Shown: positions 2,019 to 31,871, counted from the stretch's first letter. The stretch: DNA of 64,000 bases from a bacterium (GCA_016932575.1 JAFGCO010000011.1:10851-74850), one strand, 5' to 3'. Notes: generated by a model not told the origin, from the letters alone. A program made the numbers and translations.

Positions 2019-2034
2019 TGGCATGGTAGTTGCA
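2019..2034 (+). promoter_or_regulatory. Sigma-54 (RpoN) -24/-12 promoter, TGGCAT-N5-TTGCA
   Basis: Perfect match to the consensus TGGCAY-N5-TTGCW (cccatTGGCATggtagTTGCAaatt). It sits ~55 nt upstream of the first start candidate of the 1706-aa ORF. Confidence 0.6.
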
Positions 2035-2088
2035 AATTAATTATAGTTAATTCAATAATTTGTATCGGTTTGATAGAAGAGAACACTA

Positions 2089-5000
2089 TTGAAAGGCATA
2101 TTGAGGAAATGCACAGTGAAGCTCCCCCCTGAAAGCATCGGGGAAACTTCATCTGTAAGGAATCAGTTTATTCTATTGTCTCGAAAGCACCCGCTGAGCA
2201 GATTCAAGCGGGCTTTTATTGTTATTATTCCCGTTTTGTTCCTTTTTTCTGATTGCGGCAATAAACAATCATTTCACGACAGAACCATTTGCATTGATCA
2301 AAAGCGCTTCTTCTCAGTTAGATTCGATCCGTCGTATTACTATGATGTGGATTTAAAGGTTCCTGCGCTTTGTGAAGAACTCGTTTCGAACTGGAAAGAG
2401 AGCGGGATCAATACGGTTTATGTGAAGGTCTATGATCCGCTGTACGGCGCGGTATACAAGACCCGATACATACATAATATCCAGACGGATTACGGCAGAC
2501 TGAATCTGCTCAAGTCCCTGATCAAGACCGGCCATAATCATGGGATTCAAATATTTGCGTGGATTCCGGCCTTTCAGCATAAACAGGTATGGGAGGCACA
2601 TCCGGAGTGGCGCAGCAAACAGGCGGATGAAACCGACTACCAGCCGGATGAAAACAGCTGTCATCTCTGCGTCAGGAATCCGGAATACGGAAAATGGTGG
2701 ATCGGATTTGTGGAAGATCTGCTGAAGCGGTACAGGGATCTGGATGGTGTGGATATCGCCGAACCCGTTGTCAGCTGGAAACCGGATAAGGTCTGCTATT
2801 GCCGCCATTGCCGGGAGGCTCAGAACCGAATGAGTGACAGCTATGGAACGACAAAGAAGGATGCTTTTGAACTGACCCGTTCAGCGGCACTCACATCACT
2901 CATTGAAGAGACATGCCGGCTGGTTCATTCACACGGCAAGCCGGTTTCTGTGACATCTCTCACAACTGCCTATAGCGAGGGCTCCCTTTATTCCGCCCGG
3001 GAACAACAGTCCGCTACGGGATTCGATCTGGAGGCGGTTCTTGAGCTTGAGCATAAACCCGATATCATCAATATGGAAATCCTCTGGCAGGAATGGGCCA
3101 ATTTCTGGAATGACACCACCCTGTTTCAACCGGAATGGACCAAGCAGGCTGTACGGGAAGTGATAAAACAAGTGGATAATCGCAGCAAACTGGTGATTCA
3201 CGTCGAAATGACACCTCTGGGGGATATTCAGGTTCCGGATAAAATGTTCGTCAGATCGATATACGCGGCCCTTGACGGAGGGGCTCAAGGCATTGATTTC
3301 TACGATTCGCATCAGGCGGACAACCGCGGACTTTGGCCGCGGATTAAACAGGCCCTCGGTTATACCCCGTTGAAAAAGATTCTGGTCTATCATGATCCTG
3401 ATTATTTGCAGGATGCCAGACAGCTGGAAGTGCTGCTCCGGCATTTTCGAACAGATACGGAATTGAGGCCCCTGGAAAACAGTTTTTCTCCATCCGATTT
3501 GTCGGGTACGGATTGCATTTTTTATGTGGGTAACGAATACCGTGCATCTCTGCCTGAACGGTTTATACAGGCTGCTGCCGGATTTGACGGAACCGTTTGC
3601 TGGATCAATGAAAATATTCACGCATTGAAAGATGCCGGACTGTCCGGGCTGGGTTTTCATTATCAGGGCTATGATGATACGACCCGGTATGAGATTGTTT
3701 ATCAGGGAACGTCTTTTAATAAAGATAATAATTCGCTTCATCTGATTGATGTGGATCGCCCGGATCGCTGCCATATCATGGCTTCCGCCAGATCCGGTGA
3801 AAAGGAAGTGCCATACATCGTTCGAAGCGGACTCTTTTGGTATGTGGCCGATCTGCCTTCAAACTATATGACAGAGGGCGGAAGGCATATTGTTTTTGCG
3901 GATCTGCTTCATGATATTCTGCGGGAAGACCATATCGAAAAGCATTTGGCGCTGGTCCGGATTGAAGATGTCAATCCCACGTCTCATCCGGAATATCTCA
4001 GATCTATTGCCGATTACTTACACTCTCAGGACGTTCCTTTTTCGGTGGGCCTGACTCCATTCTATCTCGATCCTTCTGAAAACACAGCCATTTCCATTTC
4101 TGATCGTCCTGATTTGACCGATGCGCTGCATTATATGGTCTCGCGGGGAGGTACTGTCATTCTGCATGGATGTACCCACCAGTATCGTGGGCAATCGACT
4201 ATTGATCATGAATTCTGGGACGGAATGAACAATCGGCCCCTTTTTGAAGATTCTGAAGTTTATGTGGAGGAACGGTTAGAGAAAGCGATCAACGAGTGTT
4301 TTAAAAATGATATCTATCCTCTGGTCTGGGAGACACCTCACTATGCCGCTTCTCAGATTGACTATCGGGCAATTAACCGGTTCTTCAGCACCTGTTATGA
4401 AAGAAGACAAACCGTGGATGTTCTGGGATCTGATCAATTGTTGCCCTTTTACATTCCCGCGCGGGCGGGTAAAGCAACGATGATTCCTGAAAACCTGGGA
4501 TATGTTCCTATAGACGATCCCTCTCCTGAAACCATTGTGCTCAACGCACAAAAAAACCTGAGGATCCGGGATGGATTCGCCAGCTTCTTTTTTCATCCTT
4601 TCGTTCCGCTGGAGTCTCTGAAACAAATCATACCCGGTATCCAGGATTTGGGATATACGTTTGCCAGTATCCGATCGATCGACAATCAGGTGAAGGCCGC
4701 TTCCCAAACCGTCATCAGCGGTCAGAACGATCTGAAAATTGATGTCAATGACCAGTATTTCCGGGAATTCTATTTGACTCAAAAAGGCAAAAAGAAACAT
4801 CAGCGAATCAGTGAAAAAAAACTGTCCGAACCCATGGAAAAATCGGTGGTTTGTCCCCAGGACTGGCTTTATGTGGCCAGCGCGCTGGATGTCAGGGATA
4901 AAAAATTTCCGGCAACCCTGCTGGCATCGTTTGACAAGGCACCCTTCGGTCTGGGACATTTCCTTCAGCCGCAGCCTCTGAAGGCGGCCAGTACTACCAT

Positions 5001-7209
5001 TGCCCCTCTTTTCATTGTCGATTCATCTGCCACAGGAAAACCGGCCAGTAGCCAATCCAGTTTAATCAATGCCTTCGAGGCTGCAGGCATCGATTATCAA
5101 ACCGTTCCGGTCCGCGAATTTCTGGACATTCCGAATCATGTCGATATGATCATTGTCCCGTTTGCTGCCGGCCGGAATCTTTCAGAACAACAGATTCTGT
5201 TTATTTTAAGGGCCCTTTCACGCGGCTTGAGAATCATTATGGAAAAAGAGACGCCTTTAAGTGAACGGATCGGGATTATGGGCATCGGCGATTCGCTCAC
5301 TGTGAGTATGGTCCGGGATGAATACTATCCGCAAGTGGATATTCAATGGAAAGAAGCGGATACGTATCGCCGTTTTGATGTGCCCATCGATTATGTCACC
5401 TATTATTCAGAAAAAAACACCGGCAATCCTCTGGTGATAGGCGGTGAATTCGGTGAGGGCATGTATCTTTACTTTGCCACGCTGTTTGATCCCACCACAT
5501 CAAAAGGGTATGGCCGATATCCGTATTACTGTGATCTTCTGCAGCGGCAATTTGACTCATGGCCTCTCGTAAAAAGAGAGTCTGCGGAGATATATTTTGA
5601 GCCGGGTGACCGGGAGGATGTAAGCATAGAAGAGCTGGTTAATCTGTGGAAAAAGAGTGGTTTCAGAACCATCTATGTTGCCGGCTGGCACAGGTATCCG
5701 GACTGGACCTATGATTATAACCAACTCATTGAGTTGGCGCATCAATACGCCATGGAGGTTTATCTCTGGTTTGAACTGCCCCATGTGAACGTCGCTTTTT
5801 GGAACGAACATCCCGAATGGCGGGAGAAAACAGCCACAGGTGAGGACGCGATCATTGAATGGCGGCATTTTATGGCGCTTAACAATCCAGCCTGTCTGAA
5901 TGCGGTCTGCTCGGAATTGTCCTATTTAATTCAAAAATATGACTGGGACGGGATAAATTTCGCCGAGCTCTACTTCAGTTCTCCCCTCGGGCCTGATCGT
6001 CCCGATCTTTTTACGCCCATGAACGCATCGATAAGAAATAGATTTTCCCTGTTATATGGATTTGATCCTGTACAGCTTTTTGATCCTGCTTCATCCTTCT
6101 ATTGGCGAAAAAACAGGGCAAAATGGGAACAGTTCCAGCGATTTCGGCAGGACTTGGTCATTGAACTCCATGATGTTATACTTTCCTTTTTACATCGGGA
6201 AATAGCCAAAAAGCAGAGCGATATGGAAATTGTGGTGACCGCTCTGGACAATATCCATGCCAGACAAACGGGGCTGGGGACAGCAATGGATACCCGGCGT
6301 TTGATTGAACTGGGCGAAAGGCTGCCCTTTACCCTTCAAATTGAAGATCCCTTCGAGTTATGGCATTTGGGACCTTCCCGATATGACCGCCTTTCCCGAA
6401 CATACAGAACATGGCTGCAGGAACCGGAGAAACTTATTTTTGATATCAATGTGGTTCCCTATCGTTCGTTTAAACTGACCATGGCCCCGACAAGACAGCC
6501 GACGGGTCTTGAATTATATCATTTTCTGAAAAGTGCCTCTCAGGATCAAAACCGTGTCGCACTTTACTCCGAGTCAAGTATTTATATGGTTGACCTGCCC
6601 TGGATCTCTTATGCTCTCGGACAATATACCGAAGAGACGTTGTCGCCGTATCGCTGGGAAATTCATACAGAAAACACAGTCACTGTGGACATGGATCCGG
6701 ATAGTCATAAAGACCTGATGGTGAACGGATCATTTTGGCCGGCGTACTTTAATGGTCGCTTGATGCTTCCCCCGGGAGATCATGAGATCGAGTCCGTTTC
6801 AGGGATCAAGGGATTTGCCAAATCCTTAAATACAACAACCCGCCTTGTGGATATCAGCGGAGAGCTAAAATCCTGCCGTCTGAATCATCAGGGGATCGAC
6901 GTGACTTATGAATCTCCGGTCCGAAATTATATCATTGTCAATGAAAAACCAAAGAAAATTATGGTGGACAATACATATTATGAGAGCTGGGTGCGAAAGG
7001 GGAAAAAAGGGTATTCTCTCACCGTTCCATCCGGAATGCATACAATAAAAATTATCACACAGAGTTCGGGCAGCCGATCTTTGAGAAACTTCAGCATTGT
7101 TTCTTCAGTCACCCTTGTTCTGATAAGCGGACTGGCAGGTTTCATTTTACTTGGGCTCTATATCACCGGCGCCTTGAGAAGACACCGTCGCAACAAGCAT
7201 TCATCCTAA
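2089..7209 (+). CDS. Large (1706 aa) membrane-anchored polysaccharide-modifying protein. Domains in order: N-terminal TM/lipoprotein-like signal, glycoside-hydrolase-like TIM barrel (GHL10/DUF187-like), DUF2334 deacetylase-like domain, unknown domain, second GHL-like barrel, beta-sandwich, C-terminal TM.
   Basis: There is no in-frame ATG near the N-terminus. The start is TTG at 2089 (weak SD) or GTG at 2116 (GAGGA 8 nt upstream). Hydrophobic segment KRAFIVIIPVLFLFSDCG. GHL-like motifs GINTVYVKVYD, GHNHGIQIFAWIPAF, WEAHPEW, CYCRHC. DUF2334-like segment DVPFSVGLTPFYLDPSEN...TVILHGCTHQY. Second barrel GFRTIYVAGWHRYPDW...HPEWREK. C-terminal TM VTLVLISGLAGFILLGLYITGALRRHRRNK. Domain assignments are from memory of the families, not a search. 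Confidence 0.6.
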   Translation: MKGILRKCTVKLPPESIGETSSVRNQFILLSRKHPLSRFKRAFIVIIPVLFLFSDCGNKQSFHDRTICIDQKRFFSVRFDPSYYYDVDLKVPALCEELVSNWKESGINTVYVKVYDPLYGAVYKTRYIHNIQTDYGRLNLLKSLIKTGHNHGIQIFAWIPAFQHKQVWEAHPEWRSKQADETDYQPDENSCHLCVRNPEYGKWWIGFVEDLLKRYRDLDGVDIAEPVVSWKPDKVCYCRHCREAQNRMSDSYGTTKKDAFELTRSAALTSLIEETCRLVHSHGKPVSVTSLTTAYSEGSLYSAREQQSATGFDLEAVLELEHKPDIINMEILWQEWANFWNDTTLFQPEWTKQAVREVIKQVDNRSKLVIHVEMTPLGDIQVPDKMFVRSIYAALDGGAQGIDFYDSHQADNRGLWPRIKQALGYTPLKKILVYHDPDYLQDARQLEVLLRHFRTDTELRPLENSFSPSDLSGTDCIFYVGNEYRASLPERFIQAAAGFDGTVCWINENIHALKDAGLSGLGFHYQGYDDTTRYEIVYQGTSFNKDNNSLHLIDVDRPDRCHIMASARSGEKEVPYIVRSGLFWYVADLPSNYMTEGGRHIVFADLLHDILREDHIEKHLALVRIEDVNPTSHPEYLRSIADYLHSQDVPFSVGLTPFYLDPSENTAISISDRPDLTDALHYMVSRGGTVILHGCTHQYRGQSTIDHEFWDGMNNRPLFEDSEVYVEERLEKAINECFKNDIYPLVWETPHYAASQIDYRAINRFFSTCYERRQTVDVLGSDQLLPFYIPARAGKATMIPENLGYVPIDDPSPETIVLNAQKNLRIRDGFASFFFHPFVPLESLKQIIPGIQDLGYTFASIRSIDNQVKAASQTVISGQNDLKIDVNDQYFREFYLTQKGKKKHQRISEKKLSEPMEKSVVCPQDWLYVASALDVRDKKFPATLLASFDKAPFGLGHFLQPQPLKAASTTIAPLFIVDSSATGKPASSQSSLINAFEAAGIDYQTVPVREFLDIPNHVDMIIVPFAAGRNLSEQQILFILRALSRGLRIIMEKETPLSERIGIMGIGDSLTVSMVRDEYYPQVDIQWKEADTYRRFDVPIDYVTYYSEKNTGNPLVIGGEFGEGMYLYFATLFDPTTSKGYGRYPYYCDLLQRQFDSWPLVKRESAEIYFEPGDREDVSIEELVNLWKKSGFRTIYVAGWHRYPDWTYDYNQLIELAHQYAMEVYLWFELPHVNVAFWNEHPEWREKTATGEDAIIEWRHFMALNNPACLNAVCSELSYLIQKYDWDGINFAELYFSSPLGPDRPDLFTPMNASIRNRFSLLYGFDPVQLFDPASSFYWRKNRAKWEQFQRFRQDLVIELHDVILSFLHREIAKKQSDMEIVVTALDNIHARQTGLGTAMDTRRLIELGERLPFTLQIEDPFELWHLGPSRYDRLSRTYRTWLQEPEKLIFDINVVPYRSFKLTMAPTRQPTGLELYHFLKSASQDQNRVALYSESSIYMVDLPWISYALGQYTEETLSPYRWEIHTENTVTVDMDPDSHKDLMVNGSFWPAYFNGRLMLPPGDHEIESVSGIKGFAKSLNTTTRLVDISGELKSCRLNHQGIDVTYESPVRNYIIVNEKPKKIMVDNTYYESWVRKGKKGYSLTVPSGMHTIKIITQSSGSRSLRNFSIVSSVTLVLISGLAGFILLGLYITGALRRHRRNKHSS

Positions 7210-7228
7210 TTCTTAAGGAATCGCTCCC

Positions 7229-8512
7229 ATGCCTTTCGAATCCATTGTGATCAACATTTTATTCCTGTTTTCTGTCTCTGTCATCTGGGTGATGATTCTC
7301 TATCAGCTCGTCCTGACCTTTTACGGGCACAGACACCGCCGGGCCATGGAAAAACGACTGGCAGAAGCCGACTGGCCGGATGCGTCATTGCCTCCGGTAT
7401 CCATATTGGTTCCTGCGAGGAACGAAGAAGTTGTGATTGCCCGGACTCTGGATAAAATACTGGCACTGGATTATCCGGCTGAAAAAATGGAAGTGATTGT
7501 GATCAACGACGGTTCAACCGACAAGACCCAGGCCATCCTTGAACAGTACAAGAAAAAAGACAGCCGGGTAAAGCCCCTTCAGTTACCACCGGCAGAGACC
7601 GGCAGAGGGAAAGCCCGTGCCCTGAATGCGGGCTTCCGGATAACCCGGTATGATTATATCGCCGTTTATGATGCAGACAACAATCCGGAAGCTTCCTCTT
7701 TAAAAACACTGGTTCGGGAACTGATGGAAGACACCGCGGTGGGTGCAGTGATCGGTAAATTCAGAACCCTGAATTGGAAGAGGAATATTTTAACACGATT
7801 CATTAATATCGAGACCTTGAGTTTTCAGTGGATTCTTCAGGCAGGCCGGTACAGGGCATTCCAGGTTTCAATATTGCCGGGCACCAATTTTGTGATTCGC
7901 AAAGCAGTTGTTACCGCCTGTGGAGGATGGGATGAAGCAGCGATAACGGAAGATGCGGAACTGAGCGTACGCATTTATCAGATGGGCTGGAAAATTAAAT
8001 TCGTGCCCCATGCGGTCACATGGGAACAGGAACCGGAGAAGTGGGAAGTGTGGATCCGGCAACGGACACGCTGGGTCAGAGGGAATAATTACGTCATACA
8101 AAAATTTATTAAACCGGCATTGGGCCTGAAGAATCGGTTTCTCTTTACGGAATTTCTGTATCTCTTTATTCTCTACTATTTACTGCTGGGCGCCATTGTG
8201 ACCTCCCATCTTCTCTTTATTCTCTGCGGACTCGGAATCCTCAATGTCGATGTGCCCGGGCCCTATATGGCCGTGTGGATACTGGCCTTTATTTTGTATC
8301 TCATGGAAGTGGTGCTTGCTTTGTCTTACGAAGACGAGGATAAACCGCTGAATATCCTCATTACTGCGGTCATGTACTTCACCTATTGTCAGATGTGGAT
8401 CTATGTGGTATTTCGGGGATTTTATCTGGACCTTTTTAAAAAACGGGTCGGAATCTGGGATAAAACAGAACGTCATAATCAGGATGATCTCCTGACTCAG
8501 GATGGAGATTAG
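7229..8512 (+). CDS. Family-2 glycosyltransferase, processive synthase type (PgaC/IcaA/NodC-like), integral membrane
   Basis: SD TAAGGAA 8 nt upstream. N-terminal TM. GT2 core VSILVPARNEEVVIARTLDKILALDYP...VIVINDGSTD. DxD motif YDADN. QxxRW motif QRTRWVRG. C-terminal TM helices. It starts 19 nt after the upstream stop. Confidence 0.8.
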   Translation: MPFESIVINILFLFSVSVIWVMILYQLVLTFYGHRHRRAMEKRLAEADWPDASLPPVSILVPARNEEVVIARTLDKILALDYPAEKMEVIVINDGSTDKTQAILEQYKKKDSRVKPLQLPPAETGRGKARALNAGFRITRYDYIAVYDADNNPEASSLKTLVRELMEDTAVGAVIGKFRTLNWKRNILTRFINIETLSFQWILQAGRYRAFQVSILPGTNFVIRKAVVTACGGWDEAAITEDAELSVRIYQMGWKIKFVPHAVTWEQEPEKWEVWIRQRTRWVRGNNYVIQKFIKPALGLKNRFLFTEFLYLFILYYLLLGAIVTSHLLFILCGLGILNVDVPGPYMAVWILAFILYLMEVVLALSYEDEDKPLNILITAVMYFTYCQMWIYVVFRGFYLDLFKKRVGIWDKTERHNQDDLLTQDGD

Positions 8513-8514
8513 CC

Positions 8515-9387
8515 TTGCATGGTAAATTCTGGCATATTGCGGCAGGAATGTTTCTGGCTGTGAGCAGCTTAATGGGCAGTGAGCCGGATTCATCGGGGAT
8601 TGAATCAAATCCCGATGAAGGAGGATCCGCTGAAATTCATTGGAGCATTTGGGGAGAATTTTATGATGAGTCCATGATTTTTGAGAGTGAAGAAGACAAT
8701 GTGTTCTCCAATTCGCATATCAGGCAGGGGCTGAAAATCAGACATTTGCCGGTCATCAATCTGTTCCAGACGTATATCCTGCTGCGGTACGGACGGGATC
8801 TTCACAGGGATTTTTGGAACAATAAAACCGAGGTCGGCCTGGGGCTCAGGACCCGGTTCTTTAAAAAAATCTTTTTCGCGCCATATGCTGAATATATCTG
8901 CGGATTCTACAACAAGATCCCGGAGGGTCGTCCGCAACCCCAAGCCCGACAGTATACTGATTTAAGAGGAGGATTCATATTCTGGTATGGATGGGACACA
9001 TGGTATTCCCCTGCCTCGCTGATCACGTTTCCCAGACATTTTATCGGTGAGGTATACAGCGAATTGAACTATTTCAGAAAGGACCGTGACAATATCATAT
9101 CGTATACCCACATGAAGGCAGGCATTCGCGCAGTCCGCATTTGGAAATGCGCTTTTGTCGGTTACGGAGCCATGTATATCATGAAGGACAGAAATCGGGA
9201 TTTTTGGAACAATGTCGCTGAAATAGGGCCCGGTTTCTGGATAAAGCCCCACCCTGACGTGGATTTAAAATTTTTTGTGGAATGGCTTCGGGGCTATTAT
9301 TATGGGATTGAGGGCAGGGATGATAATCCCAATCCTCAAATATTCAGTGATCGAAGAATCGGCATTCTGTTATGGATTGGATGGTAA
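8515..9387 (+). CDS. Putative outer-membrane beta-barrel protein (EPS export porin candidate), internally duplicated
   Basis: TTG start 2 nt after the GT2 stop. Signal-like N-terminus MHGKFWHIAAGMFLAVSSLMG. Aromatic-rich alternating pattern. Two copies of the RDFWNN motif ~120 aa apart. C-terminus ...LLWIGW ends in an aromatic residue. Confidence 0.45.
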   Translation: MHGKFWHIAAGMFLAVSSLMGSEPDSSGIESNPDEGGSAEIHWSIWGEFYDESMIFESEEDNVFSNSHIRQGLKIRHLPVINLFQTYILLRYGRDLHRDFWNNKTEVGLGLRTRFFKKIFFAPYAEYICGFYNKIPEGRPQPQARQYTDLRGGFIFWYGWDTWYSPASLITFPRHFIGEVYSELNYFRKDRDNIISYTHMKAGIRAVRIWKCAFVGYGAMYIMKDRNRDFWNNVAEIGPGFWIKPHPDVDLKFFVEWLRGYYYGIEGRDDNPNPQIFSDRRIGILLWIGW

Positions 9388-9433
9388 TATTTTTAACCGA
9401 TCAATCGACTTATTTTGGTAGGAGCAATTTATT

Positions 9434-11290
9434 ATGAAAAAGAGTCTCATGGGGATTGTATTTTATGTCCTGTGCTTTTGGAGCCCGGGAAATTCCCTTG
9501 TTTTTTCCGAAGATATTGCTGCCCTGATCTGGAAGCTGTCTGCCGATCTGACTGTGACATCTATTGCGCCGACCAGTGATATTGACGGGGACAGTATACC
9601 GGACGTCTTTGTGGGATCGGCCGATCATCTGGTCTATTGCCTTTCCGGGAGCGTTATTCGTCAGGGCGAGATACTCTGGTCCTGGAATTTCGGTGCGCCT
9701 GTATGGACAGTGGCCTCTATTCCGGATATTAACAGAGACGGGGCGGATGACTGCCTGGTTGGGTGTGCTGACAATACCATATACTGCATGTCCGGAAATC
9801 CGGTTCAGGGCCTTTCGGAAATTTTGTGGTCGTACGGTGTGGACGGCGATATTTTTACGATAGCGGTTCTGAACGATCTGAATGATGATGGAATCGATGA
9901 CTGTGTGATGGGGACCAATGATGATCAGGTTTGCTGTCTTGACGGGGCATGGGGTCAGGTGCTCTGGTCCTACCGGGATCCGGCAGTTGGCGCCATCAAG
10001 TCGGTGAGTGCCATCTCCGATGTCAACAATGACGGACTGGATGACTGCCTGGCAGGCGGCGAGAATGACAAGGTGGTCTGTCTGTCCGGGGGCAGTACCG
10101 GAAATGGAGATCTGATCTGGTATTGCAATACCCAGAGCACCGTTCTTTCTGTCAACACTATTGAGGATGTGAATGAGGATAACAAGCCGGATTGCCTGGC
10201 AGGCGGAGAGGATAATTTTGTGTATTGTATATCCGGTAGCGGCTCGGGAAAAAATGATCCCCTCTGGCGCTGTGATATGGGCTCAACTGTAAAATCCGTT
10301 TCTTCTATTGCTGATGTCAATCAGGATGGCATATGGGATTGTCTGGCGGGCAGTGAGAGTTGGGACGATAATATTTATTGTATTTCCGGAGTCACTGGTC
10401 ACGTTCTGTGGTCAAATAAACTCCCCAGCAGTGTTCTCAGTGTGTGCTCCATTGATGATGTCAATGACAGCGGGTTTCATGATTGCATTGCAGGGTGTGA
10501 AAATGACCGGATCTATTGTCTTGAAGGAGGACAGGGAACAGCAATCTGGTCTTACGAGACAGGCGGTGCAGTGAACTGCGTGGTGACAGTGGCCGACCTG
10601 AACGGAAACCTGATTGATGACGTGTTAGGCGGGTCCACGGACAGCTATGTTTACGCTTTAGACGGGGGGGATATTTTAATCGAGGTTGTCAGTCCGCCGA
10701 TTGTTCCCACAGGACCATCCGGGGAAGTATCAGAAGGCAAAACCGGCAACCCAATGGTGCTCGTCACAGGCGGATCGGCCAGCAGTTTTCATCATCCGGT
10801 GGAATACCGGTTTGACTGGGGAGATGAAACGGTTTCGGTTTGGGGAGATTCGAGCCGGAGTCATATCTGGGAAGAGGCTGGCTCATATGAGGTCAGAGCG
10901 CAGGCCAGGTGTGCTCTTCATCCAACGGTACTCAGCGAGTGGTCTGATAATGTAATCGTGAAAATTGTTGAAAAGACACTTGTGAACCGCCATCCAGCAG
11001 AAGATGTGCCCATTCATTTCTGCCTTTATCAGAATTATCCGAATCCCTTTAATTTAATGACCACGATAGAATATCAGGTTCCAAAAGCCTGTCAGGTGAC
11101 CATTAATGTATACAGTATCCATAGTCACCTGATCGCATGCATTGTTGATGGATTTTTCGAGGCCGGGAATTATCGAATTAACTGGGAGGGGAGAACCTCT
11201 TCCGGCACCATCGCATCATCGGGCTGCTATATTTACTGCATGAAAGCCGGAGAATATATCGCGGTCAAAGACATGCTTCTGCTGAAATGA
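9434..11290 (+). CDS. Secreted FG-GAP/integrin-like beta-propeller protein (about 8 blades with Ca-binding DxNxDGxxD loops) carrying a T9SS C-terminal sorting domain
   Basis: Signal peptide. Eight repeats of the form DINRDGADDCLVGCADNTIYCMSG. C-terminal ...YQNYPNPFNLMTTIEYQVP...VYSIHSHLIACIVDGFFEAGNYRINWEG...LLLK matches the Por_Secre_tail / T9SS type-A sorting domain. Confidence 0.7.
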   Translation: MKKSLMGIVFYVLCFWSPGNSLVFSEDIAALIWKLSADLTVTSIAPTSDIDGDSIPDVFVGSADHLVYCLSGSVIRQGEILWSWNFGAPVWTVASIPDINRDGADDCLVGCADNTIYCMSGNPVQGLSEILWSYGVDGDIFTIAVLNDLNDDGIDDCVMGTNDDQVCCLDGAWGQVLWSYRDPAVGAIKSVSAISDVNNDGLDDCLAGGENDKVVCLSGGSTGNGDLIWYCNTQSTVLSVNTIEDVNEDNKPDCLAGGEDNFVYCISGSGSGKNDPLWRCDMGSTVKSVSSIADVNQDGIWDCLAGSESWDDNIYCISGVTGHVLWSNKLPSSVLSVCSIDDVNDSGFHDCIAGCENDRIYCLEGGQGTAIWSYETGGAVNCVVTVADLNGNLIDDVLGGSTDSYVYALDGGDILIEVVSPPIVPTGPSGEVSEGKTGNPMVLVTGGSASSFHHPVEYRFDWGDETVSVWGDSSRSHIWEEAGSYEVRAQARCALHPTVLSEWSDNVIVKIVEKTLVNRHPAEDVPIHFCLYQNYPNPFNLMTTIEYQVPKACQVTINVYSIHSHLIACIVDGFFEAGNYRINWEGRTSSGTIASSGCYIYCMKAGEYIAVKDMLLLK

Positions 11291-11326
11291 TTGAAGAGAA
11301 AAACATTTTGGAAGGCTTTGGGAATA

Positions 11327-12445
11327 ATGAGCGGCAATAACCTCTTCAAAATCATGGTCGTCATGGGAACACGGCCGGAGGCCATTAAACTGGCGCCGGT
11401 TGTGCTTGAACTGAAAAAGCAGTCCGATATTCAGCCGGTTATCGTGGCCACTGCACAGCATCGGGAGATGCTGGATCAGGTGCTGGCCCATTTCCTGATT
11501 GCGCCTGATATGGATCTTGATCTCATGATTCCCGACCAGACCCTGTTTCATCTTACAGGAGCGGCCATTCATGGATTCGAAGCAGTTTTCCAAAAAATCA
11601 GGCCCGATTTGATTCTGGTACAGGGAGATACAACCACATCTTTCATCGGCGCACTGGCCGGATTTTATAAAAAAATCAGGGTCGGCCATGTGGAGGCAGG
11701 ACTCAGAACCGGCAACAAGTATTCTCCCTTTCCTGAAGAGATCAATCGAAAATTGGTTTCTGTACTTGCTGATTACCATTTTGCCCCCACGCCGGGCAAC
11801 CGAAAAAACCTGATCGCCGAAGGAGCCGCGCCCGAAAACATTATTGTCACCGGAAATACGGTGATCGATGCATTGCACCTGACCGTGGACGACAATTTCA
11901 CCTCAGAGATGCTCTCCTCACGGGATTATGACCGTTTTATCCTGATCACCGCCCACAGAAGAGAAAATTTCGGCAAACCCCTGGAAAACATCTGCGAGGC
12001 TGTCCGGCAAATGGCCATGCATCATTCAGACTGGATCTTTATGTATCCGGTTCATCTCAACAAAAATGTTCAGGAACCTGTCCGTCGTATACTCAGCGGT
12101 ATGCACAATGTCCATTTGGCCGATCCCATGGATTATTACACCTTTGCCAATTATATGGCCGCTTCCGATCTCATTCTGACAGATTCCGGAGGCATACAGG
12201 AGGAAGCGCCCAGTCTTGCAAAACCGGTTTTGGTTTTAAGAGATGAAACCGAAAGGCCAGAAGCAGTCGAAGCCGGTACAGTGAAAATCATTGGAACGAA
12301 CCTAAAGACGATTATTTCAGAGACGGAATATCTTCTGAAGAACAAAGAGGCATATGAACAGATGACCAGGGCTCATAATCCATACGGCGACGGTAAAGCA
12401 TCGGAAAGAATCGTGACGTTTATTCGAAATACAATCATGTCATAG
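11327..12445 (+). CDS. wecB: UDP-N-acetylglucosamine 2-epimerase (non-hydrolysing)
   Basis: KIMVVMGTRPEAIKLAPVV, GDTTTSF and HVEAGLRT are classical WecB/MnaA motifs. The track start 11291 is TTG. ATG 11327 (MSGNN...) has GGAAGG upstream. Confidence 0.85.
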   Translation: MSGNNLFKIMVVMGTRPEAIKLAPVVLELKKQSDIQPVIVATAQHREMLDQVLAHFLIAPDMDLDLMIPDQTLFHLTGAAIHGFEAVFQKIRPDLILVQGDTTTSFIGALAGFYKKIRVGHVEAGLRTGNKYSPFPEEINRKLVSVLADYHFAPTPGNRKNLIAEGAAPENIIVTGNTVIDALHLTVDDNFTSEMLSSRDYDRFILITAHRRENFGKPLENICEAVRQMAMHHSDWIFMYPVHLNKNVQEPVRRILSGMHNVHLADPMDYYTFANYMAASDLILTDSGGIQEEAPSLAKPVLVLRDETERPEAVEAGTVKIIGTNLKTIISETEYLLKNKEAYEQMTRAHNPYGDGKASERIVTFIRNTIMS

Positions 12446-12492
12446 ATGTATCATTGCTCTAATTGAATAAACCAGTGACAATACTGAATTAT

Positions 12493-14421: not shown

Positions 14422-14443
14422 GATTCGCCTCTTTATTTATAGA

Positions 14444-15871: not shown

Positions 15872-16444
15872 CTATTCAAGTGAAGGTTCTGGAATATCTG
15901 CCATTTTCAACAGTTTTGTACTCATCTTTAAACCGGACTGTTTAACAGCTTCGCTGTTGATTTCAAAGCGTATCTTTTTTTTCTTGATAATAAAATTAAT
16001 CATTCCGCCATCTTTGGAAAAATTGGTTTCATCACCCACTGTAAGAATACTGTTATTTTTAATTTTACTGAATATTTGAGACCGCCGGTCTCTGTTGTCC
16101 ACACCAATGAACAGGATATGGCAAGACGACAAATCTTCCAGATTCTGATAGCGCCTGATTCTGAACTCTCGATTTTTTATTTGTTTCCCCTCAATGGTTT
16201 TTTCCAGATCAATGCCATAAGGATCACTGCCGATAATACCAATCACAAACGGTGAATCCGGATTATTGAATGATTCTTCGGGCCAATCCACAAATCTTGC
16301 AAAATTATACAGATATTTGGCCTTGATCTGATACTCTGTCGGAATGACAGTAAATCCCATTTGTGAATAACTATTTGATCCCCCAAGAATTATGATAAAT
16401 ACGGTAAAACATCGGATTGAAATGATGTTAATTTTAGGTAACAT
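15872..16444 (-). CDS. YfiR-like periplasmic protein (DUF4154)
   Basis: Signal peptide from the ATG at 16444 (MLPKINIISIRCFTVFIIILGG); the track start 16477 is TTG. It carries the DUF4154 hallmark YLYNFARFVDWP. It is the first gene of a minus-strand operon with the two kinases. Confidence 0.65.
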   Translation of the reverse strand: MLPKINIISIRCFTVFIIILGGSNSYSQMGFTVIPTEYQIKAKYLYNFARFVDWPEESFNNPDSPFVIGIIGSDPYGIDLEKTIEGKQIKNREFRIRRYQNLEDLSSCHILFIGVDNRDRRSQIFSKIKNNSILTVGDETNFSKDGGMINFIIKKKKIRFEINSEAVKQSGLKMSTKLLKMADIPEPSLE

Positions 16445-16771
16445 ATGTTCTATTTTTGAAATATTTTTCAATTCCAATCAACCCATAAAACATTAATAAA
16501 CAAGATATTATTTCTAAAAATCAATAATAAATCACAATGTTTTATGAAAATCTCTTTTTCATTATGGAATCATGATCCTTTTTATCTCAATTTCATATCC
16601 AGGGGGATTGTTCAGCTGCAGTCGCAGAATGAAGGGATGATAAATCCAGATTTTCCAATAAGGTTACACAGTAAACAAATTTAATCAATGGTGAAGGAGA
16701 AGTTTTATGCTCATCCTTTTCCCCGGTTCCGATATCCTGTTTTTATTAAAACCTGTATTTTTTATGAAATG

Positions 16772-16787
16772 TGCAAACGATATGCCA
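16772..16787 (-). promoter_or_regulatory. Sigma-54 -24/-12 promoter on the minus strand (TGGCAT-N5-TTGCA)
   Basis: Plus strand reads TGCAAacgatATGCCA, which is TGGCATatcgtTTGCA on the minus strand. This is a perfect consensus. It lies ~330 nt upstream of the YfiR-like gene. Palindromes ATTCAATTGAAT (16820..16831) and GCAGGCgGCCTGC (16845..16857) lie just upstream. Confidence 0.55.
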
Positions 16788-20364: not shown

Positions 20365-20473
20365 CGATAAAATTCTCAGATTAAACCATCCGGGTTTTGG
20401 ACAGCACTGACCAATATAAACATCATATTTTCATCCCCAAAAGCCCTGGATCAAAACACAAGGAGGGCATGTG

Positions 20474-21196: not shown

Positions 21197-21421
21197 TTTC
21201 CACTTGAGGACAGGACAAACCAAATTGATACCGGGTGGCCATGGACTCTGCTGGATCCGCAATCTGACAATCTGTCCGGCCAGACGAAAACGAATTCAGG
21301 AAAAAACGATCCGGAGATCAAATGAAGATCATCAGTTTGTCTTCACGTGAAACTTTGTTTCTCTTGAAACCGGGGGCAGGGTGCTGCTAAACAACCAATT
21401 CATGGAAAGAAAGGGATTCAT

Positions 21422-23401: not shown

Positions 23402-23452
23402 GAAAAATGTGGACGATAAAACACCGCAGAATATTTTGAAAGGAGGCTCTAA

Positions 23453-23788
23453 ATGTCAAAATTAATTAAGGTCAGCGTGGTCTTAATGCTGATCATGGCT
23501 TTATTCCGAATCTTTGCGAGCATTCAAATGGTTTTAAGCGGTGAGAAGGAATTGGATTCAGGCATTCTGTTCGCCCTCAATGCGATTGCCGTTATCGGTA
23601 TCACACTGGGAGCTTATCAAAAAGGAGAAAAATGGGCCTGGTGGACTTTGCTTGTCATTGTGATGACGCCCCCCATCTATTGCATTTTTGCCCACGGATG
23701 GCTGGCCTGGAATATTATCGGATTGGTACTGTCAACGCTCCCAATCGTCATACCGGCAAAGGCCATTCTTTGTTCAAAGCGAACCTGA
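23453..23788 (+). CDS. Small membrane protein (3 TM)
   Basis: SD AAGGAGG. Hydrophobic helices. Confidence 0.45.
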   Translation: MSKLIKVSVVLMLIMALFRIFASIQMVLSGEKELDSGILFALNAIAVIGITLGAYQKGEKWAWWTLLVIVMTPPIYCIFAHGWLAWNIIGLVLSTLPIVIPAKAILCSKRT

Positions 23789-23944
23789 CTCCTCCTGTTA
23801 TAAAGCGATAGGGACAAGACTGAATAAACGGACAACGAACTCACAATGGTTTTTCAGCACAACCCAGAGTTGAGTGACAAGCGGAAGCCGGTCCTGCGCA
23901 GCATGGCTCCTTAATTCCCCTGTCACCGGCATACATCCGGAAGC

Positions 23945-26056: not shown

Positions 26057-26355
26057 GGCATTCTCCTGCAATAATAACAGTTTTTTAAGATATGAATATT
26101 TTTTACCGGTTTCAAGCAAAAGGTAACAACCGGTTGGCCAATCCTGTAAATTTTATTTGGAATAATCACTAATGCCTGATTTAAAATATACTGGTTTTAA
26201 AAAAATAAATTCTTATCTTTTATAAAAAGGCGGCTTTGTTGATTATATGGTTTTCAAAACAAATAAAAGGCGATGTTTTTAAAGCAATAAGAGCAAACCC
26301 GGATAAGCTTTCGCAATGCCAATAAATTTACATCGATTCAAGAGGAGGTTCATAA

Positions 26356-27339: not shown

Positions 27340-27574
27340 ATTTGATTTTATGTGAAACAAGGAGAATAAAATATAAACTGCGCCATCTGTGAAACTCCAA
27401 ATTTTGTCAGCAATGGCCCGTTTTTAAATAATAATCAAATTTTAAAACCTGTTTCCTCAATACTTATGCAATGATTTAACATTTTTTCAGAAATTTTAAA
27501 GAGATTTCTTGAAATTTCAATAATTGCTCAATATATTGGAACTATATACAGTCCGAACGAAACAAGGTGTTTGC

Positions 27575-30193
27575 ATGCAAAATGCCAGTATCCTGATCGT
27601 TGAAGATGAAGTGATTATCGCCTATGATCTTCAGCAAAAGCTGCAAACGTTGGGTTATCAGGTTCCCGATATATGCACCTCTGGTGAAGAAGCTATAGAA
27701 AGCACAAACAAACATCTGCCGGATCTCATTCTTATGGATATCCGGCTTCATGGAAATATGTCAGGAATCGAAGCCGTCGAACAGATCCAAAAACAACACG
27801 ACATGCCCATCATATACCTGACTGCTCATACGGACACATCCACCCTTGAAAAAGCAAAGCATACACGGCCTGAGGGGTACCTTGTCAAGCCTATTGATGA
27901 CGAACAATCCATTTACGGCCCAATAGAAATCGCATTACACAAACATCAGATGGAAACCATTCTCAAGGAAAGGGAATCCTGGTTCGCTTCAACTCTGCAA
28001 AGCATTGAAGATGCAGTTATTACCATCGATCATCTGGGAAATATTACTGTAATGAATCCCAAAGCCCAAATGATGACAGGCTATTCAAAATCACCCTCTC
28101 CTGAACAAAGCATCGATGAAATTATCCCTCTGTCGTTAAATAAAAAATCCATATATATCTCCAGGTGGATGCAGGAAACCATCAAGACCGGTCAATCCAT
28201 CAATCTTCCGGATAACACACTCCTTCATAACCTGAATGGAACCGTTTTTAATATCGAAGGCACAATTACTCCAATCTTCTCACCAAAAAACGAGGTGTTG
28301 GGCGCGGTTTTTTCCTTTCGAAATATCACTGAAAGAAAAAAAATGGAAGACCGGCTTCGAATGACCCAGTATTCTCTGAATCATGTCGGTGAAGGCGCTT
28401 TCTGGATACGAAAGGATGCTACTTTTGCCGCTGTGAATGAAACCGCCTGTAAAATGCTGGCTTATACTCGTGAGAGATTACTTCAAAAAACAATTGTTGA
28501 CATAGACAGTAATCTAAGCTTGAAGCGTTGGAATTTATATTGGGAGACGTTAAAGGAAAAACAGCATCATATTTTCGAGACAACACTATTCACAAGAGAC
28601 GGCCGAAAATTGCCTGTGGAAATCATTGGCAACTATCTGGAATATAATGAGGTCGAATACAATTTTGCAATTGTCCGCGATATTACGGAAAGAATCATTA
28701 ATATAAAGGCACTGCAGGAAAGTAAACGAAAGCTCAGTTTATTCGCACGGAATTTCAGGGGGATCGCTTATCAGGTACAGGCCAAAGGCGAGCATGAATA
28801 TATTATTTCACATCTTGAAGGCGATCTGGAACGTATCACAGGTTATCCCTCTGAACTGTTTCACTCGGGAGAAATGCATTGGAATCAACTTATTCATCCG
28901 GATGATCTCGACAAAGTGCTTTCAGAAGACAAAAAGATGATCACCATATCAGACTATACAGCTGATAATGAATATCGGATCATTAAAAAGGATAAAAGTA
29001 TCCGTTGGGTCAGAGATATTGCCCGTATCATTGAAACGGAAAAGAATCTGATCTATCAAGGTTCGATTTTTGATATCACCGAACGTGTACAAGCGGAACA
29101 GGCGCTCAGAGAAAGTGAAGAAAAATATCGAAGTCTCGTCGAACTGGCAAGTGATGGCATTCTCATTGTTCATCAGGGATGGATTCGTTTCGCAAATAAC
29201 AGGCTAATCTCAATGTTCGATCTTCCGGCCAGCAAAGTGCTGAATACCCGATGGCTGGATCATGTTATTCCTGAAGACAAATCCATAGTAACAAAATACT
29301 TTAAAAATCAAATGCATAATAAAGAGATAACAGAAACCTTCGAGATTCAAATCTATCTTCGCAACAATCAAATACTGCCTGTCGAAATCAGTATGGGACA
29401 TATCCCATTCCATGAAGAAAAAGCATATTTGGTCTTTGTCCGTGATATTCGCGAACGGAAGAAAGCAGAATTGGCCATGCAGCAGGCCCAACGCACGTAT
29501 CATCTGGCTTCATTGGGAACTCTGGCTGCCGGCATTTCTCATGAAATCAATCAGCCGCTGACAGCGCTGAAAGTTAAAGTGGACGGCCTGCTCTATTGGG
29601 GAAAAGAAAATCCTGATATTTTACAAAGAAATTTAAAGAGCAATTTGCATTTTATCTCAGAGCAGGCAGAAGAAATCAATAAGATCATCAAACACATGCG
29701 CTCGCTTATCTATCAGGAAAAAGGTCCCTTAACCAAAATCCATATCAATCAGGTTATCCAAAAAGCCTGCCGTTTTGTGGAGCAGAGACTTTCCTCTCAT
29801 GGCATTGTTCTCAATCTCAGATTAACCCCGCGAGATCCAAGCGTTCTCGCCATTGAAACGCCTTTGGAACAGATTGTATTAAATCTCATCACCAACGCCC
29901 TTAACGCATTGAATCGTACCGATCTGAATGAGAAAATCATCGAAATACAGACACAGCGCAGGCATGGTTATTGTTTTATCCATGTCAGGGATAACGGCCC
30001 CGGCATCCCGGAAGACAACATGAACCGGATTTTTGATCCATTATTTACAACGGAAAAAAATGGAAAAGGCATGGGACTGGGCCTTGCCATTGTGGAAGAA
30101 TTGCTAAGACAATTCAAGGGATCTATTAAGGCAAAAAATCAGACAACAGGTGGCGCTCAAATGACCGTACAGATACCATTAATTAATGAATAA
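27575..30193 (+). CDS. Hybrid REC-PAS(xN)-HisKA-HATPase sensor kinase
   Basis: The track start 27524 is TTG. ATG 27575 (MQNASILIVEDEVIIAYDL...) has AAGGTG upstream. Multiple PAS repeats. H-box ISHEINQPLTAL. HATPase GMGLGLAI. Confidence 0.8.
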   Translation: MQNASILIVEDEVIIAYDLQQKLQTLGYQVPDICTSGEEAIESTNKHLPDLILMDIRLHGNMSGIEAVEQIQKQHDMPIIYLTAHTDTSTLEKAKHTRPEGYLVKPIDDEQSIYGPIEIALHKHQMETILKERESWFASTLQSIEDAVITIDHLGNITVMNPKAQMMTGYSKSPSPEQSIDEIIPLSLNKKSIYISRWMQETIKTGQSINLPDNTLLHNLNGTVFNIEGTITPIFSPKNEVLGAVFSFRNITERKKMEDRLRMTQYSLNHVGEGAFWIRKDATFAAVNETACKMLAYTRERLLQKTIVDIDSNLSLKRWNLYWETLKEKQHHIFETTLFTRDGRKLPVEIIGNYLEYNEVEYNFAIVRDITERIINIKALQESKRKLSLFARNFRGIAYQVQAKGEHEYIISHLEGDLERITGYPSELFHSGEMHWNQLIHPDDLDKVLSEDKKMITISDYTADNEYRIIKKDKSIRWVRDIARIIETEKNLIYQGSIFDITERVQAEQALRESEEKYRSLVELASDGILIVHQGWIRFANNRLISMFDLPASKVLNTRWLDHVIPEDKSIVTKYFKNQMHNKEITETFEIQIYLRNNQILPVEISMGHIPFHEEKAYLVFVRDIRERKKAELAMQQAQRTYHLASLGTLAAGISHEINQPLTALKVKVDGLLYWGKENPDILQRNLKSNLHFISEQAEEINKIIKHMRSLIYQEKGPLTKIHINQVIQKACRFVEQRLSSHGIVLNLRLTPRDPSVLAIETPLEQIVLNLITNALNALNRTDLNEKIIEIQTQRRHGYCFIHVRDNGPGIPEDNMNRIFDPLFTTEKNGKGMGLGLAIVEELLRQFKGSIKAKNQTTGGAQMTVQIPLINE

Positions 30194-31649
30194 TGGTGGC
30201 ATAATGATGCATATTTTACTGGTTGAAGACAACACAGGAGTCCGGGAAAGTCTGGTCGAATTACTCCAGAATCTCGGCTATCAGATCACAAGCTGTGAAA
30301 ATGGAAAAATTGCCATGGACATCCTCAATCAGTCGGATATTAATGTGGTCCTGTCTGACATCATGATGCCGGTAATGAATGGACATCAATTACTGAAAAA
30401 TGTTAAAGACAAGGATTCGTTAAAACATATTGAAGTCATCTTATTTACAGGACATGGAGACGTGAAAAGCGCTGTGGAAGCCATGCGTGACGGCGCATAC
30501 GATTATTTGGTCAAACCGGTGAATGTTGAGGAATTGGACGTGGTTTTAAAACGGCTGAATGATCTTTTTCAATTAAAAACAGACCATGAAAAACTCAGCC
30601 ATCATTTTAAGGAAGAAGTTCAAAAAGCCACGCAGGAAATTGAGAATGAATTAATTGCCATTCGCAAGGCATTTGCACGGGAAATTGGCACAGTTGAAAT
30701 TGGTATTTTTTCAAAATCCATGAAACAGGTTTTCGGACGCGCAGAAAAACTGCATCAGAATCCCGACATTCCTGTACTCATTGAAGGAGAAACAGGGACT
30801 GGAAAAGAGCTGGTGGCTCATTTCATCCATTATGGGCATGGCGATGTGGTCGCTCCTTTTGTGGGATTAAACTGTGCGGCACTCAGCGCCAATTTATTTG
30901 AAAGCGAGCTGTTCGGTTACGAACCCGGTGCATTTACCGGAGGCAGCCCCAGGGGTCAAAAAGGCAAACTGGAACTAAGCGGGAATGGTTCTCTTTTCCT
31001 GGATGAAATTACGGAAATGCCGGCTGAGCACCAGGCCAAGTTGTTACGGGTAATTCAGGAACGGGAATTTTTCCGTGTGGGGGGGTTAAAAAAAAAGGAA
31101 GCCAAAGCCAGGTTCATTTGCGCAACGAACCGGAATGTAAAAGAAGCCGTTAAAAACGGCTCTTTTCGTCAGGATCTATACTTCCGGTTGAATATCGGAC
31201 ATATCCGTATTCCTCCGCTGAGAGAGCGTCCGGAATCTATTTTACCAATGGCTCTTTTATTTTTGAAACAACTGACAAAGCAGAAAGCCACACATTTCCA
31301 GAAAATTTCTCAAAAAGCCAGTGAGATGCTTCAAAAGTATCATTGGCCGGGCAATGTACGTGAGTTAAAAAATCTGATCGAACGCATTGTTCTGTACTGG
31401 GATGACGAAGAAATCCGGCCAACTCATGTTCGTGCCTGCCTTGAAAGTATCCCAAGCCCTTATATGTCCAATAAAATAAACGAAATCCCTGAAGAATTCC
31501 AAATGCCCGGAAACCGTATGGATTTAAATAAACATGTATTGACCCTGGTAAAAAAGGCCCTGGATATGCATCAGGGCAATCAAACGCAGACCGCCCAGTA
31601 TCTTGGAATTTCTGTCCGCGTCTTGCATACATATATGAAAAAATTATAA
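30186..31649 (+). CDS. Sigma-54-dependent response regulator (NtrC family; REC + AAA+ activator + Fis-type HTH)
   Basis: ILLVEDN...DVVLSDIMMP, Walker A GETGTGKE, GAFTGG motif ESELFGYEPGAFTGG, C-terminal HTH. It overlaps the upstream kinase gene by 8 nt. Alternative starts are ATG 30204 or 30207. Confidence 0.85.
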   Translation: MNNGGIMMHILLVEDNTGVRESLVELLQNLGYQITSCENGKIAMDILNQSDINVVLSDIMMPVMNGHQLLKNVKDKDSLKHIEVILFTGHGDVKSAVEAMRDGAYDYLVKPVNVEELDVVLKRLNDLFQLKTDHEKLSHHFKEEVQKATQEIENELIAIRKAFAREIGTVEIGIFSKSMKQVFGRAEKLHQNPDIPVLIEGETGTGKELVAHFIHYGHGDVVAPFVGLNCAALSANLFESELFGYEPGAFTGGSPRGQKGKLELSGNGSLFLDEITEMPAEHQAKLLRVIQEREFFRVGGLKKKEAKARFICATNRNVKEAVKNGSFRQDLYFRLNIGHIRIPPLRERPESILPMALLFLKQLTKQKATHFQKISQKASEMLQKYHWPGNVRELKNLIERIVLYWDDEEIRPTHVRACLESIPSPYMSNKINEIPEEFQMPGNRMDLNKHVLTLVKKALDMHQGNQTQTAQYLGISVRVLHTYMKKL

Positions 31650-31715
31650 AAATCAAATAAAAAACTTCGGGTTCCATAAAAGACAACACTCTATCTGAAT
31701 AAGCAGGTTGCGCCA

Positions 31716-31745
31716 ATTGACAAATCCGTATACCAATCTGTCAAT
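31716..31745. promoter_or_regulatory. Inverted repeat ATTGACA-N16-TGTCAAT, candidate enhancer (UAS) for the downstream sigma-54 promoter
   Basis: It lies ~110-140 bp upstream of the -24/-12 element at 31856. Confidence 0.35.
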
Positions 31746-31855
31746 CCATGAAATTTCCACGTATTTCTTTATCATAATTTCTTTCAATTAAATAATCATT
31801 TTATTTCAATTTAATTAATAATTTATATAAGCTCCCGGTCGGAAAGAATTCAACC

Positions 31856-31871
31856 TGGCATAATTCATGCA
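31856..31871 (+). promoter_or_regulatory. Sigma-54 -24/-12 promoter (TGGCAT-N5-aTGCA)
   Basis: caaccTGGCATaattcaTGCAttt. GG and GC are correctly spaced, with one mismatch at the first T of the -12 element. It is ~90-170 nt upstream of the first chemosensory gene and directly downstream of the NtrC-like gene. Confidence 0.6.

Follow-up and report, generated by a model that had tools for sequence, protein, structure and literature searches.

A 64,000-nucleotide stretch of bacterial DNA from an uncultivated lineage (GCA_016932575.1, JAFGCO010000011.1:10851-74850; hereafter the window) carries three operons for surface and signalling functions, and each of them is preceded by a 16-mer that resembles the -24/-12 element of sigma-54-dependent promoters. 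The first element, P1 (TGGCATGGTAGTTGCA, 2019-2034, plus strand), stands before a five-gene exopolysaccharide (EPS) operon (2116-12445, plus strand). The second, P2 (TGGCATATCGTTTGCA, 16772-16787, minus strand), stands before a three-gene YfiR-kinase operon (16444-12493, minus strand) that converges on the EPS operon. The third, P3 (TGGCATAATTCATGCA, 31856-31871, plus strand), stands before a chemosensory (che) operon of about 16 genes (31985-47759, plus strand). The functions that an earlier interpretation of the bare sequence, here called the sequence-only reading, had guessed for the three operons agree with Pfam and NCBIfam scans, and the REC-PAS kinase (27575-30193) and NtrC-type activator (30186-31649) that it had placed directly before P3 are both present.

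The EPS operon opens with a giant gene for a 1,697-aa protein with GHL6/GHL10 and DUF2334 (YdaL-like) domains and continues with genes for a PgaC-like processive family 2 glycosyltransferase (GT2), a 290-aa hypothetical protein, a beta-propeller/FG-GAP/PKD protein and WecB (UDP-GlcNAc 2-epimerase). This gene order is identical in the orthologous loci L057/L061, L059/L062 and L060/L063 (L numbers denote loci from other genomes). The best match of the GT2 is PgaC/IcaA TIGR03937, at 162.8 bits versus a cut-off of 422.3; judged by this score, the enzyme is PgaC-like and not a family member, and it falls short of what defines a synthase of poly-N-acetylglucosamine (pgaABCD/ica). The YfiR-kinase operon, in turn, encodes a YfiR-like periplasmic protein (DUF4154, E-value 1.5e-48), a CHASE8-HAMP-HisKA_2 sensor kinase (CHASE8, E-value 8.2e-14) and a REC-PAS-HisKA-HATPase-REC hybrid kinase. 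Both the YfiR-like protein and the sensor kinase pass the curated NCBI cut-offs of their families, 'TOL_0243 YfiR-like' (NF053591, 165.7 versus 125) and 'YfiR-like-associated sensor kinase' (NF053592, 223.9 versus 194). The convergent pairing of the two operons across the gap 12446-12492 is kept in L001, L057, L059 and L060, and since it persists in at least four lineages with otherwise different surroundings, it points to a functional link between the EPS and YfiR-kinase operons.

The che operon begins with genes for a REC-HisKA_2 kinase (31985-33037), CheW, a TonB-dependent receptor, a YfiR-like DUF4154 protein and a pair of methyl-accepting chemotaxis proteins (MCPs), followed by CheR, CheA, a CheC-like protein, CheD, CheB, CheX, two REC proteins and a histidine kinase (46656-47759); L030, L031, L033 and L034 share this gene order. 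The TonB-dependent outer-membrane receptor and the YfiR-like protein (33672-36694, plus strand) lie between CheW and the MCPs at all orthologous loci, and the L030 operon encodes two TonB-dependent receptors. Such a receptor together with a YfiR-like protein is unusual content for a chemosensory cluster. The YfiR-like proteins of the P2 operon and the che operon show no pairwise similarity to each other. A kinship between the sensor domains of the MCPs and the CHASE8 kinase was considered and set aside, the similarity being limited to the transmembrane/HAMP region.

P1 and P2 match the pattern TGGCAY-N5-TTGCW exactly and P3 departs from it by one mismatch, at -15; in all three, the GG and GC dinucleotides (2020-2021 and 2032-2033 in P1) are exactly 10 bp apart. 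The sequence-only reading had reported three 16-mers with zero or one mismatch, each before an operon, and its sequences and positions proved exact. Predicted transcription starts fall near 2045 (P1), 16761 (P2) and 31882 (P3). All three elements are intergenic and lie upstream of and co-oriented with their operons, both here and at all orthologous loci, and they end 82 nt (P1), 328 nt (P2) and 114 nt (P3) before the annotated start codons, which are the GTG at 2116 of the first EPS gene, the ATG at 16444 of the YfiR-like gene and the ATG at 31985 of the che operon.

The exact pattern occurs twice in the window versus 0.21 times expected, and two or more matches arose in 1 of 100 dinucleotide-preserving shuffles. 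With one mismatch allowed, there are nine matches versus 5.97 +/- 2.41 expected, and nine or more were reached in 14 of 100 shuffles. The sequence-only reading had argued that three such elements were very unlikely to be coincidental, citing a chance expectation of 0.03 for a perfect TGGCAT-N5-TTGCA; that arithmetic is correct for the base composition of the window, and the argument carries the two perfect sites but does not extend to the third. A sigma-54 matrix, which is approximate and, with frequencies after published compilations, only indicative, gives P1 a score of 18.0 (maximum 19.2), P2 16.5 and P3 13.8, and places these three intergenic, co-oriented sites among the five best hits on both strands of the 64-kb window (128 kb). 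The other two are a hit at 48420 (score 14.3) within coding sequence and a fourth candidate sigma-54-like site, TGGCATCCTATTTGCC, at 56269-56284 on the plus strand (score 13.5), which is again intergenic and co-oriented. Four of these five hits fall in non-coding slots that have the orientation of a gene and lie at most 350 nt from its start, a class that makes up 3.5% of all position/strand slots in the window (binomial P ~7e-6). The hit at 48420 was judged a chance match from its place inside a coding sequence, as were two minus-strand hits, one at 27572, whose GC is lost in L030, and one at 26306, which is missing from L030.

The decisive evidence for all three putative promoters is their conservation across orthologues. 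Phylogenetic footprinting covered 12 orthologous promoter regions with protein identities of 53-85%, which gives 15 promoter instances in all. Throughout the three promoter sets, TGGCA and TGC stand at fixed spacing and are invariant (15 of 15 instances), position 6 is T in 14 of the 15, and the five spacer positions are free to vary. In ungapped, promoter-anchored alignments, pairwise identity is 0.82-0.96 over the 11 core positions, as compared with 0.44-0.69 in the spacer, 0.24-0.36 in the 30 nt upstream and 0.31-0.59 in the 30 nt downstream. Specifically, the TGGCAT-N5-TTGC of P1 is kept before the giant gene in L001 (77% identity), L061 (81%), L062 (61%) and L063 (55%), P2 is kept before the YfiR-like gene in L001, L057 (85%), L058 (74%), L059 (56%) and L060 (53%), and P3 is kept as TGGCAY-N5-yTGC in L030 (82%), L031 (70%) and L033/L034 (67%), with varying spacer and flanks. 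A pairwise alignment of P2 with L001 shows an 18-nt block, CTGGCATATCGTTTGCAC, amid unalignable upstream DNA. When the orthologous loci, 11-22 kb each, were scanned for their best matrix hit, the promoter came first in L001 (both P1 and P2), L057-L063, L031, L033 and L034, and took second place in L030. In none of the P1 loci, which span 13-22 kb, does another hit outrank it. A metagenome scan with the giant EPS protein, queried at 1,706 aa, proved useless for footprinting, as it returned relatives at 26-34% and one 26-residue fragment at 65%.

The three sites show the pattern of conservation expected of genuine -24/-12 promoters, and sigma-54 dependence of P1, P2 and P3 can be inferred. Since the motif is asymmetric and always directed at the gene, it is consistent with a -24/-12 element but not with a dimeric operator. 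The interpretation that best accommodates the data, and that we consider probable, is that the window holds three independent enhancer-dependent sigma-54 promoters, each heading its own operon, of which only P3 is tied to a neighbouring activator.

Several observations weigh against this interpretation. P3 is not significant by count, because one-mismatch matches occur at chance frequency, and it deviates from the consensus at -14/-15, reading ATGC or CTGC, not TTGC. P2 lies unusually far from its gene (~316 nt), and a sigma-70-like TTGAGA-N18-CATAAT (16590 to 16561) sits in its leader, closer to the gene. Orthologue alignments reveal no conserved element upstream of P2, and no activator was found for it. 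P1 is overlapped by a sigma-70-like TTGGCA-N18-TATAGT in the three closest genomes. Among homologues of the giant EPS gene with identities of at most 47% (L003-L029 and L064, which comprise Ignavibacteria, Acidobacteriota and a 5.2-Mb complete metagenome-assembled genome (MAG)), the promoter is absent. Finally, neither the window nor 980 kb of fetched loci contains an RpoN box.

This last point bears on a far-reaching alternative, namely that the TGGCA-N6-TGC blocks are operators of an unrelated transcription factor in an organism that has no functional sigma-54. The failure to observe rpoN in the window and the 980 kb of loci is what such a proposal would predict. It would have to accommodate, however, a motif that is asymmetric, invariably gene-co-oriented and in agreement with the -24/-12 consensus at every defining position, as well as an AAA+ activator whose sigma-54 contact loop is conserved and which is kept under selection beside one of the sites. 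The proposal is therefore extremely improbable. As to the more distant EPS homologues, their lack of the promoter indicates that sigma-54 control of this type of EPS operon is clade-specific, acquired within one clade.

The overlap at P1 raises a more local alternative, in which the conserved block acts, instead or in addition, as a sigma-70 promoter of the form TTGGCA / TATAGT or TATAAT, an AT-rich palindrome at 2035-2052 is its operator, and the likeness to sigma-54 elements is incidental at this site. The palindrome in question, AATTAATTATAGTTAATT, is 18 bp long and spans the predicted P1 start; it is perfect in L001/L061 and absent from L062/L063, and might serve as an operator or belong to an overlapping -10 region of the sigma-70 type. 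The sigma-70-like sequence matches its consensus at 10/12 positions in the window and at 11/12 in L001 and L061, conservation in these two loci reaches well beyond -12, and the lineage apparently uses canonical sigma-70-type promoters elsewhere. In the more diverged L062 and L063, however, neither the -10 hexamer nor the palindrome survives, while TGGCAT-N5-TTGC is invariant, and this invariant block would fall partly in the spacer of a sigma-70 promoter. An explanation of P1 by sigma-70 is accordingly unlikely. At P2, the TTGAGA-N18-CATAAT overlaps the best-conserved block of the leader and might be a second, proximal promoter for the YfiR-kinase operon.

Reading P1 as a sigma-54 promoter also directs attention to what lies upstream of it. 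A non-palindromic element, CACTATGCAATGATTCCG (ATGCAATGATTCCG), at 1855-1876 on the plus strand, ~155 nt upstream of the TGGCA of P1, is kept at -150 to -165 in L001, L061 and L062 and at -101 in L063, and is a candidate enhancer-like site of P1.

The most complete regulatory unit belongs to P3. Upstream of it, a cytoplasmic REC-PAS(x3)-HisKA-HATPase histidine kinase (27575-30193, plus strand) is followed by an NtrC-type enhancer-binding protein composed of REC, an AAA+ sigma-54 interaction domain and HTH_8 (30186-31649, plus strand; the start codon is probably at 30207). The kinase, the presumed partner of the activator, is paired with it in L030, L033 and L034 and takes a longer form of 1,391 aa in L031. 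A sigma-70-type promoter read from the sequence, TTGAAA-N17-TATATT (27509-27537, plus strand), which is conserved in L030, is predicted to drive the kinase-activator operon; by its hexamers, the lineage appears to use canonical sigma-70 sequences. The activator matches Sigma54_activat at 2.5e-58 and shows the hallmarks of the NtrC type, namely a REC domain with its phospho-acceptor Asp, an AAA+ domain with Walker A/B motifs and an arginine finger, and a C-terminal Fis-type helix-turn-helix (HTH). As it scores below the equivalog cut-offs of NtrC, AtoC and all other named NCBIfam activators, it belongs to an unnamed subfamily. Its identity among the four lineages is 73-82%, and the Walker A/B motifs, the receiver phospho-acceptor Asp, which belongs to a conserved SDIMMP motif, the ESELFGYEPGAFTGG loop and the HTH are invariant in the four orthologues. 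The contact loop, which reads GAFTGG in all four, is among the activation-compatible variants in a study of the Desulfovibrio sigma-54 regulome (PMC4641369).

Between the activator gene and the che operon, an alignment of five sequences contains only two conserved islands, which are P3 itself and an enhancer-like 22-bp palindrome, ACAAATnnGTATACnnATTTGT (ACAAATCCGTATACCAATCTGT), at 31720-31741. This palindrome has a GTATAC core, is unique within the window and occurs in one copy per locus; the distance from its centre to the TGGCA of P3 downstream is 125.5 nt here and 113.5-126.5 nt across orthologues, and the palindrome is perfect in L031. The sequence-only reading had pointed to an ATTGACA-N16-TGTCAAT inverted repeat as an upstream activating sequence. 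That repeat, which spans 31716-31745 and lies 111-140 nt before the TGGCA of P3, brackets the palindrome and so does mark a conserved enhancer-like site; its 7-nt outer arms, however, are found only in the window and L030, which identifies the inner 22-bp palindrome as the functional core. No consistent IHF consensus sites were found between enhancer and promoter. Four loci (L030, L031, L033 and L034) keep the kinase, the activator, the gap and the che operon side by side although their outer neighbours differ, for example LacI/aldose-epimerase in L031 and PmbA/TldD in L033.

By these measures of conservation and linkage, the activator, the enhancer site and P3 form one coherent predicted unit, and the adjacent kinase and NtrC-type activator likely control the che promoter P3. 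In the proposed mechanism, the kinase-activator pair would be transcribed from its own sigma-70-type promoter, and the REC-PAS kinase would phosphorylate the activator. The activator, as a dimer or oligomer, would then bind the 22-bp palindrome ~125 bp before the -24 element and loop over the A/T-rich spacer to the closed sigma-54 holoenzyme, where ATP hydrolysis would open P3 and switch on the che operon. P1 and P2 would drive the polysaccharide and YfiR-kinase operons, respectively, with the same sigma factor and with one or more other activators encoded elsewhere.

Canonical NtrC-type sigma-54 promoters, such as the enterobacterial glnAp2, have the consensus TGGCAC-N5-TTGCW. The present unit resembles them in the 10-bp separation of GG and GC, in the dyad-symmetric site ~110-130 bp upstream of P3 and in a REC-AAA+-HTH_8 activator that is encoded with its partner kinase beside the target. 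It differs in that the target of P3 is a chemosensory operon, while that of NtrC is nitrogen assimilation, and in that a single 22-bp palindrome with a GTATAC core takes the place of tandem NtrC sites. Furthermore, the contact loop is GAFTGG and not GAFTGA, the kinase is a cytoplasmic REC-PAS protein and not NtrB, and P3 is off consensus at -14/-15.

Whether the three promoters form one circuit is a separate question. The sequence-only reading had proposed that they do, with the kinase and activator at 27575-31649 switching on all three promoters in a single two-component cascade that couples chemosensing to polysaccharide production in the manner of Wsp/Dif. All three operons do have the same class of promoter and lie within 30 kb of each other, in the window and, as far as visible, in L030. 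A 12-mer, TATGCAATGATT, furthermore occurs exactly twice on the plus strand, inside the P1 upstream element (1861-1872) and before the kinase-activator operon (27465-27476), versus ~0.016 occurrences expected by an estimate of our own from base composition, and hints at a common factor. The second copy of this 12-mer, however, is not kept in L030, L031 and L033. The palindrome, even with up to three mismatches, does not occur in the region of P1 or P2, whether in the window or in nine orthologous loci, and no 9-mer that is not AT-rich is common to the 300-nt upstream regions of the three promoter sets with one mismatch allowed. ATGATTCC, which occurs near both P1 and P2, was considered as a shared site and rejected, since it is not enriched (10 found versus 6.8 expected). 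In none of the loci examined does the neighbourhood of P1 or P2 encode a further activator.

Genome organization speaks against a single cascade as well. The conserved linkages are those of the kinase-activator pair with the che operon and of the YfiR-kinase operon with the EPS operon, and in a MAG from Zodletone spring the che module and the EPS/YfiR module are on separate contigs with different neighbours (JAFGGN010000097 and JAFGGN010000092). Because P1 and P2 lack the palindrome and the promoter sets share no upstream motif, a single cascade is not supported, and it is very unlikely. The accompanying notion of 'one RpoN regulon' holds only trivially, in that one sigma factor is common to all sigma-54 promoters. 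The likeness to Wsp fares no better: none of the ~47 window proteins scanned contains GGDEF, EAL or PilZ, and the comparison fails because the window has no GGDEF protein and so lacks the defining REC-GGDEF output. What can be said is that here, as in Wsp, a che-like cluster plausibly governs a surface or biofilm trait; unlike Wsp, the cluster has no WspR-type REC-GGDEF protein, and it encodes a TonB-dependent receptor and a YfiR-like protein, neither of which is part of Wsp. Three independent promoters thus remain the preferred interpretation.

A closer parallel for the P3 unit is the Che3 system of Myxococcus xanthus, in which the NtrC-like CrdA is the output of the pathway and the DNA targets of CrdA were unknown (PMC3147164). 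In both cases, a kinase and an NtrC-like activator are found beside a che cluster that probably governs a function other than swimming. Unlike in Che3, a conserved binding site with its promoter puts the che operon of the window downstream of the activator, and CheY-like receivers are kept. The parallel invites an alternative in which the kinase-activator pair is both the switch of the che operon and the phospho-output of the chemosensory pathway, with P3 closing a feedback loop. CrdA, encoded beside che3, is under the control of both CrdS and CheA3 (PMC3147164), and the N-terminal receiver domain of the kinase in the window could take phosphate from another kinase. Extra kinases and receiver proteins are present at both ends of the che operon, and the linkage of the kinase-activator pair with the che operon is conserved. 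The cluster, however, has CheY-like receivers and CheC/CheX phosphatases of its own and is consequently not short of a conventional output. Such wiring is doubtful, though less so than a single cascade.

A related and similarly tentative idea concerns the input side. In this scheme, the TonB-dependent receptor and the YfiR-like protein would feed into the MCPs as a self-regulating envelope-sensing pathway, whose kinases may act back on the REC-PAS receiver or the activator and thereby set the pathway's own sigma-54-dependent expression; the phosphorelay of the YfiR-kinase operon might control EPS through a second, distant activator. This scheme is possible but improbable on present data.

The YfiR-kinase operon likewise has a known counterpart. 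As in YfiBNR of Pseudomonas aeruginosa (PMC3375315, PMC4887326), a periplasmic YfiR-like protein is combined with a sensor in the inner membrane whose periplasmic domain is of the YfiN type (CHASE8). In YfiBNR the output is a diguanylate cyclase; its place is taken here by a HisKA_2 kinase together with a hybrid kinase, and the YfiR-like protein and its sensor fall in separate NCBI families, NF053591 and NF053592. The YfiR-kinase operon of the window and of the L057-L060 loci contains neither a gene for a YfiB OmpA-like lipoprotein nor a GGDEF output.

Sigma-54 control of exopolysaccharide and cell-surface ('bacterial exterior') genes is a theme that recurs across phyla (Francke et al. 2011, PMC3162934), and NtrC-dependent EPS has been described in Burkholderia cenocepacia (PMC5491218). 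The present case is like these in that sigma-54 promoters are placed before EPS and surface/motility operons by reasoning from motif and conservation, and differs in the uncultivated lineage and in the DUF2334/PgaC-like type of EPS operon. As such, sigma-54 control of EPS and surface genes is already established, and the finding is one of ordinary enhancer-dependent regulation. Its value lies in mapping, with good support, the regulation of three operons for surface and signalling functions in an uncultivated lineage and, at P3, in one complete unit of activator, binding site and promoter that can be transferred to a heterologous reporter. The analysis also illustrates the reach of motif counting, which alone justifies two of the three sites and cannot tell a common sigma factor from a common signal; it was conservation among the orthologues that resolved both points. 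The sole newly testable open question is posed by the che operon with its TonB-dependent receptor and YfiR-like protein.

Further features of the locus deserve mention. The leader of the P2 operon (16445-16760, minus strand, ~316 nt) contains conserved sequence blocks, of which CGGAACCGG, CATTGATT, TGGAAAATCnGGATTT and AAAGGATCATGATTCCATAwTGAAA are common to the window, L001, L057 and L058, and it is only 133-185 nt long in L060 and L059. Rfam gave no match to this leader, and Rfam and tRNA scans of the window as a whole gave none either. A structured RNA or riboswitch was considered for the leader and rejected, as the consensus fold reaches an unconvincing -9 kcal/mol over 326 columns, and a mini-ORF (open reading frame) of three to four codons in a conserved block was discarded because it is lost in L058.

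The 2-kb stretch before P1, which is without listed ORFs, is mostly taken up by a minus-strand gene (3-1409) that runs off the left edge and whose product resembles MFS_2 sugar transporters and has a Laminin_G_3 (concanavalin-like) domain inserted between its membrane halves. The fourth candidate site, TGGCATCCTATTTGCC, lies in a 50-bp divergent gap between a gene for an MrfA-like helicase and a 288-aa hypothetical ORF (56320-57186) without a Pfam match. As to the source of the DNA, the MAG from Zodletone spring is the nearest to it, more distant homologues are labelled candidate division KSB1, and type IX secretion sorting domains suggest that the lineage belongs to the FCB (Fibrobacteres-Chlorobi-Bacteroidetes) group.

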